Assembly (NCBI GenBank): GCA_963697885.1
Contig: OY969102.1
Location: 423,006-487,005, forward strand
Length of the DNA stretch: 64,000 bases
From: an uncultured Alphaproteobacteria bacterium
GTDB taxonomy: Bacteria > Pseudomonadota > Alphaproteobacteria > Rhizobiales > Xanthobacteraceae
Direction of reading: 5' to 3'
The number at the start of each line of letters is the position of its first letter. The first letter of the stretch is position 1. The translations under genes were made by a program, and so were the position numbers. Below are positions 1,636 through 45,487 of the stretch, piece by piece. The notes under the pieces were generated by a model. It had not been told where the DNA came from. It ran no database searches and saw only the letters and a list, made by a program, of their open reading frames with translations.

Positions 1636-3181
1636 ATGACGATGAGGAGAATTCAAAACGTCCTGCTTGCAGGAGCAGCCAGTCTTTTGACAGTCGCAAC
1701 CGCCCAGGCGGCAGACTTGCCGGTAAAGGTCAAGCCGATCCAATACGTCAAAGTGTGCTCGCTCTATGGCGCCGGCTTCTATTACATTCCAGGCACCGAC
1801 ATCTGTCTCAAGGTCGGCGGCTACCTGCGTGCCGAAGCTGACGTCAACGCCGGCGGCACACTGACGCCCGCAGTTGGACCGGGATCGGCGAACAATCGCG
1901 ATAGCGTCAACAATCGTGAGTTCGAATTCGTTCGTGCAGCGTTCACGTTCTTTGTGGACGTTGGACACCCGCCAGCAAACGGACTACGGCATTGTGCGCA
2001 GTTACGCACGAACCGGAATCCAATGGACGACCGGCGATAACGTAAACGCTGGAAGCGGAGCGGTCGCCTATATCGACCGCGCGTTTCTCCAATTCGGCGG
2101 CCTGACCGCCGGCCGCGCCGTCTCGTTCTTCGACATCTACAGTTTCAGTCAGCATTCGTACCAGACCAATATCATTGGCAGCGATTCTGGCGGCACCGGC
2201 ATCAACTTGTTCGGATACACCGCGGATTTCAGGGATGGCCTTTCAGCAACAGTGTCCGCCGAAGAGCACACGTCCCGAAGCAAGCCGGTCGTGAACACAG
2301 TCGGTACGAGTGCCTTCCTGAACCTGAATACCGTCAACAATCTCGGCACCGGCACATCCACATCGCAAGCCGGACAGACCCTGCCAAATCTTGTCGGAAA
2401 CGTCCGGCTGGACCGGGCGTGGGGTGCGGTACAGGCCTCGGTTGCCTTGTCCGACGTCGCGGCGACCTACTACTCCTCCGGCACGTCGGCAGCGAATGGC
2501 GGGACGGCATTGGCGATCGGCGGCGGCGCCGGCGGTCTGCCCGCCTTTGGCCACCCGGATGACAAACTGGGCTACGCGGCAACGGTCGGGACGGTCCTCA
2601 ATCTGCCAACGGCCCGTGGCGATACGCTCGGAATTCAGGCTGTCTATTCGAGAGGCGCGTCAGCCTATGCCGGCCAAGGGCAAAGTACTTTTAACGTTGT
2701 CAGAGGCGACAGCATCGGAATGGGTTTCGTCACTGATGCCGTTTACGCCGGTGTCGGGAGCGATCTTGAACTGACGACGGCCTGGAGCGTGACCGCCGGC
2801 ATCGAGCATAACTGGACTCCGGCGTGGCGGACGTCGCTCTACGGCGGTTACGAGAACATCTCGTACAATCAAAATGCCACCGCGGAGATCTGTGCAGGTC
2901 TCGCACCAGGAGGCGCCGGTGCATTCACGAGTGCCGGCGGATTTACACCAGCCAATTGCAATCCCGATTTCAGTTTCTGGCAGATCGGCACCCGCACCAT
3001 CTGGACTCCGGCCACGGGTTTGGAATTGGGATTGGACATTCTCTACAACCACATCAACACGGCGTTTGAAGGTCCGGTGAATGTGTCAGCCAACGGGACC
3101 ATTCCGTCCGGACTATTCAGCGCACACGATCAAAACGTGTTGTCCGCCGCGTTCCGCATTCAGCGAAGTTTCGTGCCGTAA
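1636..3181 (+). pseudogene. outer-membrane porin (alphaproteobacterial Porin_2 / RopA-Omp2b type), frameshifted by +1 nt near 1921
   Basis: The N-terminal ORF has a signal peptide plus the family motif (MRRIQNVLLAGAASLLTVATAQAADLPVKVKPIQYVKVCSLYGAGFYYIPGTDICLKVGGYLR). The rest continues in the +1 frame (LDTRQQTDYGIVRSY...DRAFLQFGGLTAGRAVSFFD...AAFRIQRSFVP). The span is 1546 nt (3n+1). Deleting one T of GAGTTC 1918-1923 joins the frames. Confidence 0.8.
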
Positions 3182-3385
3182 TTTGAAGCCCCCTCAAACG
3201 AACGGCGCGAAGCCGAGGCCCCGACGGGAATCTGTCACCATCTTTTCCCGCCGGGGCCCGCCCTTTGCCGAGCCCGGATATTCAATTGCAAATAGCCCCA
3301 AGGACGGCATGCGGTTGAAATAGCCAAAGAATTACGGCCGGCGCTCTTTCGCGTTAGGGCGCGCGATGCGATATACCCTGACGCC

Positions 3386-4423
3386 ATGAAATTCCTCGAC
3401 GAAGCCAAGGTCTATATTGCGTCCGGCGCGGGCGGGAACGGCTGCGTGTCGTTCCGGCGCGAGAAATTCATCGAGTTCGGCGGGCCAAACGGGGGCGATG
3501 GCGGCAACGGTGGCGCCGTCGTGGTGGAGGCGGTTACTGGCCTCAATACCCTGATCGACTACCGCTACCAGCAGCATTTCAAGGCACAGCGCGGCGGTAA
3601 CGGAATGGGCCAGGATTGCGCCGGCGCCAACGGCAAGGACATTGTCCTGAAAGTGCCGATCGGCACGCAGGTTTACGAAGAAGACGGAGAAACGTTGATC
3701 GCCGATTTCACCAAAATCGGAGAACGCGTCACGATCTCCAAGGGCGGCAATGGCGGTTTTGGCAATGCGCATTTCAAGTCGTCCACCAATCGTGCGCCGC
3801 GCCGTGCCAATGCCGGCCAGCCGGGCGAGGAGCGCACCATCCGGCTGCGCCTGAAGCTGATCGCCGATGCAGGGCTGATCGGCTTGCCCAACGCGGGCAA
3901 GTCCACCTTCCTCGCGACGGTGAGCGCCGCCAAACCCAAGATCGCCGACTACCCCTTCACCACGCTGCATCCGCAGCTTGGTGTCGTGCGCGTGGATGAG
4001 CGCGAGTTCGTGGTGGCCGATCTGCCGGGCCTGATCGAAGGCGCACATGAAGGCGTCGGCCTCGGCGATCGCTTCCTTGGCCACACCGAACGTTGCCGCG
4101 TGTTGCTGCATCTGATTGACGGCACCGTCGAGGATGCCGGCGAAGCCTACAAAACCGTCCGCGCGGAATTGAAGGCGTACGGACAGGGGCTCATGGACAA
4201 GCCGGAGATCGTCGCGCTTTCGAAGGCCGACGCGTTGACGCCGGAGGCGATCAAGGAACAATCCGCCCGCCTGAAAAAAGCCTGCAGGAAAACGCCGCTC
4301 GTGTTGTCGTCGGCGTCCGGCCAAGGTGTTCCGGAAACGTTGCGTGCGCTGCTCAAGGTGATCGACAAGGCACGCGACCTCGCCGACAATCCGCAAACGG
4401 AAGAAGCGGCCTGGCAGCCGTAA
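3386..4423 (+). CDS. obgE: GTPase ObgE/CgtA
   Basis: [43 protein letters not shown] is the Obg fold. GTPase motifs GLPNAGKST and DLPGLIEGA are present. Confidence 0.95.
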
Positions 4424-4442
4424 AGCGTACACGGAGACAATC

Positions 4443-5555
4443 ATGCAAACCCGCGCCGCAGTCGCCTGGAAAGCCGGCGAGCCTCTCACCATCGAGACCA
4501 TCGAGATCGAAGGACCGAAGGCCGGTGAGGTCATGGTAGAAATCAAGGCGACCGGCATCTGTCACACCGATGCCTACACGCTGTCGGGCGCCGATCCGGA
4601 AGGACTGTTTCCGGCAATCCTCGGACATGAGGGCGCGGGCATTGTGCGCGAGGTCGGCGCAGGCGTCACCACGCTGAAAGCCGGCGACCACGTCATTCCG
4701 CTCTACACGCCGGAATGCCGGCAATGCAAAACATGCTTGTCGCGCCGTTCGAATCTCTGCACCGCGATCCGCGCCACGCAGGGCAAGGGCGTCATGCCGG
4801 ATGGGACCAGCCGCTTTCGCTGCGACGGCGACCCGGTCTTCCACTACATGGGCTGTTCGACCTTCGCGAATTTCACGGTGTTGCCGGAAATCGCGCTCGC
4901 CAAGGTCCGCGAGGACGCTCCGTTCGACAAGATCTGTTACATCGGCTGCGGCGTCACCACTGGCGTCGGCGCTGTCATCAACACCGCGAAAGTCTGGCCG
5001 GGCGCGAACGTCGCCGTTTTCGGACTGGGCGGTATCGGACTCAATGTCATTCAAGGCGCGCGCATCGTGGGCGCCGACAAGATCATCGGCATCGACCTCA
5101 ATCCGGCACGCCGCGCCATCGCCGAGAAATTCGGCATGACGCATTTCGTCAACCCGGACGAGGTCGGCAAAGACAAAGTTGTGCAGGCGATCGTCGACCT
5201 CACCGGCGGCGGCGCGGATTTCTCGTTTGAATGCATTGGCAATGTGAACGTGATGCGCCAGGCCCTGGAATGCTGCCACCGCGGCTGGGGCGAAAGCATC
5301 ATCATCGGTGTCGCCGGCTCCGGTCAGGAGATTGCCACGCGGCCATTTCAACTCGTCACCGGCCGCGTCTGGAAAGGTACGGCTTTCGGCGGCGCGCGCG
5401 GCCGCACCGACGTGCCGAAAATCGTCGACTGGTACATGGACGGCAAGATCAATATCGACGATTTGATTACCCACACCATGCCGCTCGACAAGATCAACGA
5501 TGCGTTCGATCTGATGCACGAAGGCAAATCGATTCGCTCGGTGGTGGTGTACTAG
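4443..5555 (+). CDS. adhC: S-(hydroxymethyl)glutathione dehydrogenase / class III alcohol dehydrogenase
   Basis: 370 aa. [50 protein letters not shown] is the class III Zn-ADH signature. A GGAG RBS sits 7 nt upstream. Confidence 0.9.
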
Positions 5556-44228: not shown

Positions 44229-44233
44229 GATAT

Positions 44234-44770
44234 TTACGCGTTGAGCGGGTAGCTCGCCTCGACCACATATGGACCGCCGCCGACCGAGGCGCGCGACGAA
44301 AATAGAACGAAGCGCGAGACGCGGAAGGCGGCAGTACGGAAATAACCGCGGGCCGCGAGATAATCCGCGACGTCACGGCTGGACGATTCGCGCAAGCGCG
44401 CGAGCGTCACGTGCGGCGTGAACTTGCGTCCTTCTGGCTCCAGGCCAATGCGTTGCATCAGCCGTTCCTGCTCGGCCTGCGCATCAAGCAGGGCTTGCGC
44501 GGGAGCGACGCTGGCGACCACCGCGCGCGGCTTGCGACCGCCAAATGAAGTCAGGCCCTCCATATAGAGCTCGAAAGACCCGCGTTTCACACGCCCAAGC
44601 ATGGATGCGACTTCATGGGCGATGACATCATCAACGTCGCCAATGAAGCGTAGCGTCAGGTGATAGTTCTGCGGGTCGATCCAGCGCGCGCCCGGCAATC
44701 CGCCGCGCAGCATGCCAAGCGCCTGCCCGACATCGGGCGGGATTTCGACACCGGTGAAAAGGCGCGGCAT
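44234..44770 (-). CDS. thpR: RNA 2',3'-cyclic phosphodiesterase (2H phosphoesterase)
   Basis: Two HxT/S motifs are present: NYHLTLRFIG and TPHVTLARL. Confidence 0.88.
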   Translation of the reverse strand: MPRLFTGVEIPPDVGQALGMLRGGLPGARWIDPQNYHLTLRFIGDVDDVIAHEVASMLGRVKRGSFELYMEGLTSFGGRKPRAVVASVAPAQALLDAQAEQERLMQRIGLEPEGRKFTPHVTLARLRESSSRDVADYLAARGYFRTAAFRVSRFVLFSSRASVGGGPYVVEASYPLNA

Positions 44771-44784
44771 GGGTAGCCCACTTC

Positions 44785-45487
44785 TTATTTCCCGCGCACG
44801 GCGCGAGACCGAACAATCAGCTCTTCGACTCGCGGCAGAATACGCGCCACGATCACGTCCACGCCGTCGGCATTGGGATGCATGCCGTCGCCCTGGTTTA
44901 ATTTGGGATCGGCGGCTACCCCGTCAAGGAAGAATGGATAAAAGACGACCGGGTGAGTTCGAGGCAAGTGCCGGGTAGATCGCGTCAAAATCGCGCGCAT
45001 AGTCGGGGCCCATGTTGCGCGGTGCCTGCATGCCCGCGAGCAGGACAATGATATGACGGTCCTCAAGTCTGCGCAGAATTGTATCGAGCGCGGCCTTGGT
45101 CAATTTTGGATCGAGCCCCCGCAAGGCATCGTTTGCGCCAAGTTCGAGGATGACTGCGTCGGTGCCATCCGGAACTGACCAGTCCATGCGCGCGAGGCCC
45201 GCGGACGCCGTGTCGCCGGACACGCCGGCATTGATGATCGTGACGGCCGCGTCTTTAGATCTCAACGCCGCGGCCAATCGCGACGGGAACGCTGCATCGA
45301 CCGGCAATCCAAAGCCTGCGCTGAGGGAATCGCCCAGCACCACGATTTTGACCGGCTGTTCGGCCGCCTCTACGCCGCTCGCCGGGGCCAGCGCACATAC
45401 CAATGCGACCAGCAGCAAGGCTGCAAGACGCTGGACCCGGGCGGGGTTCCTCCCATATGAGCGGGGTTGTGAATAATGAGGTCCCAT
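44785..45487 (-). pseudogene. SGNH arylesterase / TesA-like lipase, frameshifted by +1 nt at about 44958
   Basis: Signal peptide, then IVVLGDSLSAGFG (GDSL block) and GANDALRG. Homology continues in ORF 44785..45066 (HPVVFYPFFLDGVAADPKLNQGDGMHPNADG, the DxxH block). The span is 703 nt (3n+1). The extra base lies in GAGTTC 44955-44960. The candidate start ATG 45487 overlaps the divergent ABC gene start by 2 nt, so the true start may be internal. Confidence 0.8.

Follow-up and report, generated by a model that had tools for sequence, protein, structure and literature searches.

Single-base insertions at GANTC sites break four reading frames in an alphaproteobacterial assembly and are very likely consensus errors

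The window analysed here, a contiguous stretch of 64 kb, carries four genes whose reading frames are broken by one extra base: a porin gene, atpD, priA and the gene of a GDSL/TesA-like esterase (Table 1). In all four the extra base lies inside a GAGTTC or GAACTC hexamer, and the removal of one T/A gives a continuous full-length protein for each gene, with the junctions PLD-STSRML in AtpD, GRLAS-LVVTANE in PriA, NNRE-SNSF in the porin and ALAS-THPVV in the esterase. This repair had been proposed, with these junctions, in the initial annotation, and it is borne out by translation and by the matches of repaired AtpD to TIGR01039 (positions 2–462 of 462) and of repaired PriA to NF004070 (positions 10–729 of 729); the repaired porin comprises 514 residues. 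The spans of the porin gene, atpD and priA (1546, 1438 and 2179 nt) are of the form 3n+1, as had been stated, and the 703 nt given for the esterase gene is the span from the second Met, the first ATG giving 733 nt, which is likewise 3n+1. The hexamers of the porin, atpD and esterase genes lie where the annotation had placed them, and that of priA, given as 26646–26651, was 9 nt off. The porin, atpD and esterase genes are indeed each split into two ORFs, but priA is not truncated: the frameshift moves the C-terminal 89 residues out of frame, and the wrong-frame tail stays open over 113 codons, to position 26285, giving an ORF of 753 residues. On the coding strand, two of the genes have the hexamer as GAACTC and two as GAGTTC, and this mixed orientation therefore indicates no link to transcription or translation. 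The window contains 35 such hexamers (about 210 nt, 0.33% of its length), and the probability that four homology-pinned frameshifts would all fall in them by chance is about 1e-10.

Table 1. Broken genes and probable substitution errors in the window (L001, L010 and L031 are reference contigs).
Feature	Position	Strand	Observation
Porin gene (Porin_2 family, PF02530)	1636..3181	+	Spurious T at 1921/1922 in GAGTTC 1918-1923
atpD (F1 ATP synthase beta)	18792..20229	-	Spurious base at 19174/19175 in GAGTTC 19171-19176 (T on + strand, A on coding strand)
priA (primosomal protein N')	26368..28546	-	Spurious A at 26638/26639 in GAACTC 26637-26642
GDSL/TesA-like esterase gene	44785..45517	-	Spurious T at 44958/44959 in GAGTTC 44955-44960
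Probable substitution error	26354	+	Window AACTC, L001 GACTC (G1 to A)
Probable substitution error in priA	27003	+	Window AACTC, L001 GACTC; Ser to Leu
Probable substitution error	44132	+	Window AACTC, L010 GACTC
Probable substitution error	63329	+	Window AAATC, L031 GAATC
Probable substitution error	63461	+	Window AATTC, L031 GATTC
Probable substitution error	63698	+	Window AATTC, L031 GATTC

The window was compared with metagenome-derived reference contigs from near-identical strains, which do not derive from the same DNA sample and the platform of each of which is undocumented. The only gap between the window and contig L007 (99.7% identical) is the base predicted to be spurious in atpD, where L007 reads GACTC. 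Similarly, the only gap in 7.1 kb of alignment with L001 (99.7% identical) is the predicted base of priA; L001 reads GAGTC on the coding strand at this site, and its PriA differs from the repaired PriA of the window at two of 656 residues. The frame switch in priA was also seen against seven relatives in a tblastn scan. The esterase site reads GAG-TC in L010 (99.88% identical) and L011 (99.3%) and GAGTC in five relatives; one of the two gaps in the L010 alignment is the predicted base, and the repaired product and the 210-residue L010 esterase have identical sequences. An exact-pattern scan of metagenome contigs with 0 or 1 base allowed at the porin site gave no near-identical porin contig, and none of six related loci (83–88% identity) has the extra base, five reading GAGTC and one GAATC; the porin homologs are full-length and gap-free (512–517 residues), and their conserved NNRES motif is the family consensus. 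The exact repaired AtpD is present in the protein collection and is encoded by seven other contigs, and a look-up of the broken AtpD product in this collection gave no record in any other assembly. A scan of genome contigs with the exact pattern of the atpD site, again with 0 or 1 base allowed, gave no match. Searches for exact matches to the products of the sigma factor gene (385-1008), sucD (37645-38529) and the ORF at 30217-30981 returned no record, probably owing to start-codon choice.

The frameshifts are thus missing from all of the near-identical and related loci compared, and, since the near-identical contigs (three sites) and the six porin loci lack the extra bases, these are specific to the assembly of the window and lie within GANTC. 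Alignment to close orthologs, which the initial annotation had suggested, therefore finds the extra base in no relative of any of the four genes, and its view of the extra bases as base-calling insertions in GANTC sites rather than pseudogenes is supported. The deletion of a G/C from the hexamer in place of a T/A, which would also leave a GANTC site (GATTC/GAATC), was considered and rejected because AtpD requires Asp (PLDS), with only the Asp version and not the G/C-deleted variant in the protein collection, because the porin family has Glu (RES) and because the esterase of L010 has Thr; the near-identical DNA itself reads GAGTC/GACTC.

A second class of probable errors, absent from the initial annotation, consists of six substitutions of GANTC to AANTC, which occur at both GASTC and GAWTC sites. 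All six are G-to-A changes directly 5' of the A of the motif. The three at GAWTC sites are grouped in a locally more divergent stretch (63.1–63.7 kb), and each of the three GANTC sites that the reference has between 63.1 and 64.0 kb is changed in the window; at position 27003, nine of nine relatives have G within GANTC. As GAATC and GATTC are substituted as well as GACTC, the shared element is GANTC and not GASTC alone.

The comparable sequence amounts to 38,551 nt with 73 reference GANTC sites, nine of which are changed in the window (three insertions and six G1-to-A substitutions), whereas the positions outside GANTC show 77 differences in 38,183 (Fisher p = 1.3e-7). For indels alone, three of five fall within the motif (p = 8e-6). 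The direction is uniform, the window always losing the GANTC site (nine cases versus none in the opposite direction). With the porin site included, the affected sites are GACTC/GAGTC in seven cases, GAATC in one and GATTC in two, and a C lies directly 5' of the motif at seven of the nine changed comparable sites and also at the porin site. The extra and changed bases are therefore both assembly-specific and concentrated in GANTC, and the effect is partial, as had been claimed, with 64 of the 73 sites intact. Pfam checks of overlapping ORF pairs and a tblastn scan with the ORFs of relatives revealed no further frameshifts in the window. The xerC/DUF4337, proA/nadD and BA14K protein pairs were rejected as split genes, being separate genes by the Pfam checks, and the ORF pair 3332-4558/4353-5663 gave no Pfam match and no frame switch in the tblastn scan. 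A GC3 frame plot was dropped as a frameshift finder, being too noisy (GC3 of about 0.75 versus GC1 of about 0.65). Frameshifts also occur in the relatives' nanopore-style MAG loci L074, L105, L049 and L090, none of them at a GANTC-derived hexamer; the signature is therefore not shared by all long-read MAGs of the clade.

CcrM is the cell-cycle-regulated N6-adenine methyltransferase of Alphaproteobacteria, with GANTC as its target, and it is conserved in the group of the host (Xanthobacteraceae, Alphaproteobacteria). Among named proteins and loci, the nearest belong to Pseudolabrys sp., Xanthobacteraceae, Rhodoplanes and Bradyrhizobium, and on sequence grounds the lineage is Pseudolabrys-like (Alphaproteobacteria, Hyphomicrobiales). 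The GANTC motif is depleted in the window, with 128 occurrences against 306 ± 16 expected from dinucleotide-preserving shuffles (42% of expectation), and 100 of 100 shuffles gave counts above that observed; its occurrences form clusters in two short stretches (1476-1505 and 37642-37740). Both the depletion and the lineage are compatible with CcrM methylation, and the affected motif takes any central base (GASTC and GAWTC), as CcrM requires. However, no ccrM gene lies in the 64-kb window, in which neither the enzyme nor methylation was observed, and we infer the methylation, its link to CcrM and the sequencing platform.

Methylation-induced errors in Oxford Nanopore data have been described mainly as A/G or C/T ambiguities with the minimal motif RA/TY (Lohde et al. 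2024, PMC11610573). The six substitutions in the window, each of a G that directly precedes the adenine presumed to be methylated, show this signature, and the errors are likewise of partial penetrance, systematic and tied to a motif. The four genes, in contrast, are broken by insertions of one base (GACTC to GAACTC), and the main text of that paper does not contain the term 'insertion'. Assembly errors associated with GANTC have been reported in agrobacteria (PMC12710330), in which methylation-aware models reduced them, and in Brucella melitensis and B. abortus (PMC12392509). The motif and the bacterial class are the same as here, the errors are at or adjoining GANTC, a subset of the motif occurrences is hit and most errors are in coding sequence; however, the published motif-linked errors are for the most part SNPs, and there are few of them (two in Brucella), whereas the density in the window is high (nine of 73 comparable sites and four frameshifts in 64 kb). 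This density points to a model that is older or not methylation-aware, to low coverage or to assembly from a metagenome. A literature search found no explicit description of insertion-type errors at GANTC.

Taken together, the four frameshifts are very likely consensus errors of a single-molecule assembly that arise from CcrM-type GANTC methylation, the true genes being intact. The source platform is most likely Oxford Nanopore, and the source assembly is probably a soil MAG or an isolate of a Pseudolabrys-like alphaproteobacterium. A CcrM-type methyltransferase of this lineage would N6-methylate the adenine of GANTC on both strands, and the signal of the k-mer around the methylated A would be distorted. 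Basecalling or polishing may then turn G-mA-C-T-C into GAACTC, the inserted A causing a frameshift, or alternatively into AACTC, with the G miscalled as A; GAATC and GATTC sites would undergo the same G-to-A miscall. The effect is partial, with about 12% of the comparable sites hit, and a C immediately before the motif seems to be favoured. In the true genome, the porin, atpD, priA and esterase genes would all be intact.

Two other explanations also place the errors in the sequencing. Context-driven assembly errors, in which k-mers such as CGACTC are mishandled whether or not the A is modified, would accommodate the recurrent 5' C and the fact that a minority of GANTC sites is hit, and methylation is itself deduced; however, the same G1-to-A change occurs in GACTC, GAATC and GATTC, whose only common feature is GANTC, and it fits the published RA/TY signature (PMC11610573). 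With the depletion of GANTC and the taxon favouring CcrM, and with GANTC-linked errors having dropped under methylation-aware models in agrobacteria (PMC12710330), we regard purely contextual errors as unlikely. It is very unlikely that the methylating enzyme is not CcrM but a restriction–modification methyltransferase of HinfI (GANTC) or PleI/MlyI (GAGTC) specificity. In favour of such an enzyme, the four insertions, as well as three of the substitutions, lie at GAGTC/GACTC, and ccrM was not observed in the window. The three GAATC/GATTC substitutions oppose a specificity limited to GAGTC, and a PleI/MlyI-like enzyme acting on GASTC only is improbable given these sites; the complete change of the reference GANTC sites at 63.1-64.0 kb and a host from the Xanthobacteraceae, a group with conserved CcrM, also point away from such an enzyme.

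Genuine mutations, either as true pseudogenes or as real alleles rescued by programmed ribosomal frameshifting or transcriptional slippage, are extremely improbable. The extra bases do stand in the deposited sequence, and the open wrong-frame tail of priA would be compatible with a real allele, but atpD and priA belong to the core genes, an identical gain of one base in one and the same pentamer recurs in four unrelated genes, strains with 99.7-99.9% identity are intact and no other assembly contains the broken AtpD product; moreover, the differences are one-directional (9 to 0), no slippery heptamer is present and the orientation to the coding strand is mixed. We give just as little credence to GANTC sites as real mutational hotspots, at which, for example, CcrM-methylated adenines could induce duplications of one base and G-to-A transitions when DNA is replicated or repaired; the window would then represent a decaying or hypermutating strain with atpD and priA inactivated. 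In a milder form of this reading, the insertion-type signature (G-mA-C-T-C read as GAACTC) would be an undescribed failure mode of the basecaller, by which CcrM-type methylation in public long-read MAGs could be deduced from their assembly errors alone.

Read as consensus errors at methylated GANTC, the broken genes are an artefact of a known kind, of low biological interest and of real relevance for annotation. Four of about 60 genes in the window, including the core genes atpD and priA, are liable to false annotation as pseudogenes through a motif-specific error, and at least six more GANTC sites carry silent or missense miscalls, such as the Ser-to-Leu change in PriA. Were four frameshifts per 64 kb the rate throughout a genome of several Mb, the false frameshifts would number in the hundreds and the GANTC census would be distorted, with consequences for pseudogene counts, completeness estimates, dN/dS and SNP typing, as well as for any work on CcrM sites in long-read alphaproteobacterial MAGs. 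The GA[A]CTC/AANTC signature offers a simple screen by which affected assemblies can be flagged and repaired.

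The extra base that splits the porin, atpD, priA and TesA-like esterase genes lies in each case in a GAGTTC/GAACTC hexamer, and the frame layout was read from the ORF list and three-frame translations (see table). The hexamer positions given in the initial annotation were borne out for the porin, atpD and the esterase, whereas that of priA, placed at 26646-26651, was 9 nt off. The four spans, stated to be 3n+1, were reproduced, and the esterase span counted from the first ATG (733 nt) is likewise 3n+1; in the priA ORF 26285-28546 the wrong frame happens to remain open. The window contains 35 such hexamers (27 ± 5 expected), amounting to ~0.33% of the sequence, and the location of all four independently pinned frameshifts inside them is therefore not due to chance (probability about 1e-10).

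Split genes and substituted GANTC sites in the window
Feature	Position	Strand	Site or change	Span (nt)	Layout or basis
porin	ORFs 1603-2040 and 1874-3181	+	GAGTTC 1918-1923	1546	two frames
atpD	ORFs 19084-20229 and 18792-19214	-	GAGTTC 19171-19176	1438	two frames
priA	ORFs 26285-28546 and 26368-26712	-	GAACTC 26637-26642	2179	two frames
esterase	ORFs 44924-45517 and 44785-45066	-	GAGTTC 44955-44960	703	two frames
substitution	26354		GACTC to AACTC		near-identical contig comparison
substitution	27003 (priA)		GACTC to AACTC		near-identical contig comparison
substitution	44132		GACTC to AACTC		near-identical contig comparison
substitution	63329		GAATC to AAATC		near-identical contig comparison
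substitution	63461		GATTC to AATTC		near-identical contig comparison
substitution	63698		GATTC to AATTC		near-identical contig comparison

Deletion of one base of the doubled T/A restores all four proteins, as had been claimed, giving uninterrupted products of 514 (porin), 478 (AtpD), 725 (PriA) and 243 (esterase) amino acids with the junctions quoted in that annotation. Repaired AtpD matches the equivalog model TIGR01039 (model positions 2-462 of 462), repaired PriA matches NF004070 (10-729 of 729), the esterase matches a TesA model, and hundreds of full-length Porin_2 homologs of 512-517 amino acids are gap-free over the porin junction, where the family consensus is NNRES. The porin homolog P0017, from a Logan assembly (92% identical), reads NNRELNSF, with Leu where most other aligned homologs have Ser (RESNSF), and the homolog P0019 also has REL; a change of GAG TCG to GAG TTG in P0017 would equal the GAGTC-to-GAGTT miscall of the window and may mark another public assembly with such an error.

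Near-identical metagenome contigs from other samples, which represent near-identical strains and not the same DNA as the window, were obtained through exact-protein look-ups. In the ENA contig L001 (7.9 kb, 99.7% identical) the sole gap in 7.1 kb is the priA site, with GAGT-CTC versus GAGTTCTC in the window, and in the JGI contig L007 (7.1 kb, 99.7% identical) the sole gap is the atpD site, which reads GACTC. The esterase site is GAG-TC in contigs L010 (JGI, 11.1 kb, 99.88% identical) and L011 (99.3%), and the 210-residue L010 esterase shows no difference from the repaired window product. For the porin, which is hypervariable, near-identical contigs were accordingly not found. Comparison with close orthologs, proposed earlier as a check, found the extra base neither in the contigs covering atpD, priA and the esterase nor in any of six related porin loci (83-88% DNA identity; GAGTC in five, GAATC in one). 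The exact repaired AtpD (Asp version) is present in a 15-billion-protein collection and encoded on seven contigs, and the alternative product of G/C deletion (Glu version) is absent from that collection. Together with the contig readings at atpD, priA and the esterase, these sequences show that T/A, not G/C, is the base to delete and that the true sites are GAGTC/GACTC, in line with the original proposal.

A second class of change relative to near-identical contigs is of a single type, in which reference GANTC reads AANTC in the window. At 27003 the G within GANTC is found in nine of nine more distant relatives, and the window A changes Ser to Leu in PriA, where L001 has Ser. Across seven contigs, covering 38,551 comparable window positions and 73 reference GANTC sites, nine sites are altered in the window (three insertions and six substitutions of the first G), and none of the comparable positions carries GANTC in the window only, a one-way count of 9 to 0, or 10 to 0 with the porin site. 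The remaining 38,183 positions hold 77 differences (Fisher's exact test, p = 1.3e-7 for motif versus non-motif positions and p = 6.8e-7 for substitutions at G1/C5). Of the five indels, three lie inside the motif (p = 8e-6); the other two, intergenic differences in A-run length at 14738 (A versus AA) and 51308 (A5 versus A4), may reflect either homopolymer errors or true polymorphism. GASTC was hit at 6/30 sites and GAWTC at 3/43, and C directly precedes the motif at seven of the nine changed sites and at the porin site. The GASTC errors are always on the strand reading GACTC, four times on + and three times on -, and there is therefore no global strand bias. The three GAWTC miscalls fall inside a more divergent segment, 61339-63698, which holds ~28 of the 33 substitutions found over 10.3 kb relative to L031, a JGI population 99.9% identical outside it; this local rise in divergence points to recombination of the segment or to mixed strains.

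The changes are peculiar to this assembly, run in one direction and are concentrated in GANTC, which supports and extends the interpretation of the split genes as artefacts rather than pseudogenes. That these are true pseudogenes or cases of programmed frameshifting is very unlikely: the genes are intact in strains of 99.7-99.9% identity, the four have no relation to one another and include two core genes, the differences go one way, and the broken AtpD product is nowhere else on record in the gene-position index. The orientation is also mixed, with GAACTC on the coding strand in two genes and GAGTTC in two, and therefore shows no link with gene expression. A k-mer error independent of methylation has only a slight probability and leaves unexplained the same change in three different pentamers that have only GANTC in common. 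A GAGTC-specific restriction-modification methyltransferase as the source of methylation is disfavoured, since the GAWTC events speak against it.

The simplest account would be that N6-methyladenine in GANTC led single-molecule sequencing to a consensus error specific to this motif. The insertion form, GACTC to GAACTC, looks like the same confusion as the substitution, resolved differently; for the octamer GGAGTCGAG the outcome was an insertion at 19171 and a substitution at 44132. We infer methylation of GANTC, CcrM as the responsible enzyme and Nanopore as the platform. The names on homologs and related loci (Pseudolabrys, Xanthobacteraceae, Rhodoplanes, Bradyrhizobium) belong to Hyphomicrobiales, in which CcrM is conserved (established knowledge; also PMC12710330). 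Methylation-induced errors with Nanopore Kit 14 are mainly A/G or C/T ambiguities with the minimal shared motif RA/TY (Lohde et al. 2024; PMC11610573), and the G-to-A change directly 5' of the motif adenine in the window is the same change. Assembly errors linked to GANTC are on record for agrobacteria, where methylation-aware models reduce them (PMC12710330), and for Brucella (PMC12392509). The four split genes thus represent an artefact with precedents in the literature, and are therefore of low biological interest; in practice, such an artefact gives long-read alphaproteobacterial assemblies false pseudogenes and missense calls at CcrM sites.

Every suspicious overlapping same-strand ORF pair was subjected to Pfam analysis, which showed xerC/DUF4337, proA/nadD and the BA14K proteins to be separate genes; for the pair at 3332-5663 Pfam gave no match. 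The ORF 5578-6399 (-) has its BA14K domain at residues 172-199 of 273, followed by a 74-residue tail, unlike its neighbouring paralog 6387-6935, in which the domain is at the very C-terminus; with a constant GC3 phase, it does not look frameshifted. A tblastn scan with stop-to-stop ORFs from 13 related loci, covering window positions 1-8139 and 22692-48795, revealed consistent frame switches on which several relatives agree at three places only: 1919-1922, 26637-26639 and 44951-44967. The atpD gene was covered by direct comparison with L007; the four GASTC sites therefore account for every frameshift detectable in the window.

No GANTC-derived hexamers were found at the frameshifts of the related nanopore-style MAG loci L049, L074, L090 and L105 (names starting MFD, contigs called contig_N), and the signature is therefore a property of the basecalling and polishing of this assembly, and not one shared by every long-read MAG in the clade. 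Split genes in long-read-style contigs include EamA and atpC in L005 (ENA ERZ25039556 contig_48425, a related bacterium), priA, ftsX and afg1 in L074, and sucA, sucD and ftsX in L105; judged by their junctions, which are not GANTC-derived, the splits in these three loci and in L049 and L090 look like generic indel errors that are not motif-linked.

GANTC is depleted in the window (128 observed versus 306 ± 16 expected, 42% of expectation) and tightly clustered at 1476-1505 and 37642-37740, a distribution that, like the lineage, lends support to the proposed methylation. The interval 1177-1505, upstream of the porin gene, holds seven GANTC in ~330 nt, four of them within 1476-1505, and the sucD 3' end and sucA-sucD spacer (37642-37740) hold five within 100 nt; these dense clusters could be CcrM-sensitive regulatory regions. 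In the atpA-atpG spacer (21194-21233) the window has ~40 nt extra relative to L001 and L007, with two GC-rich hairpins (CATGGCCGGGCTTGTCCCGGCCATC ... ATGCCCGGCACAAGGCCGGGCAT) versus one in the relatives; the difference resembles the gain or loss of a REP-like palindromic element between strains.
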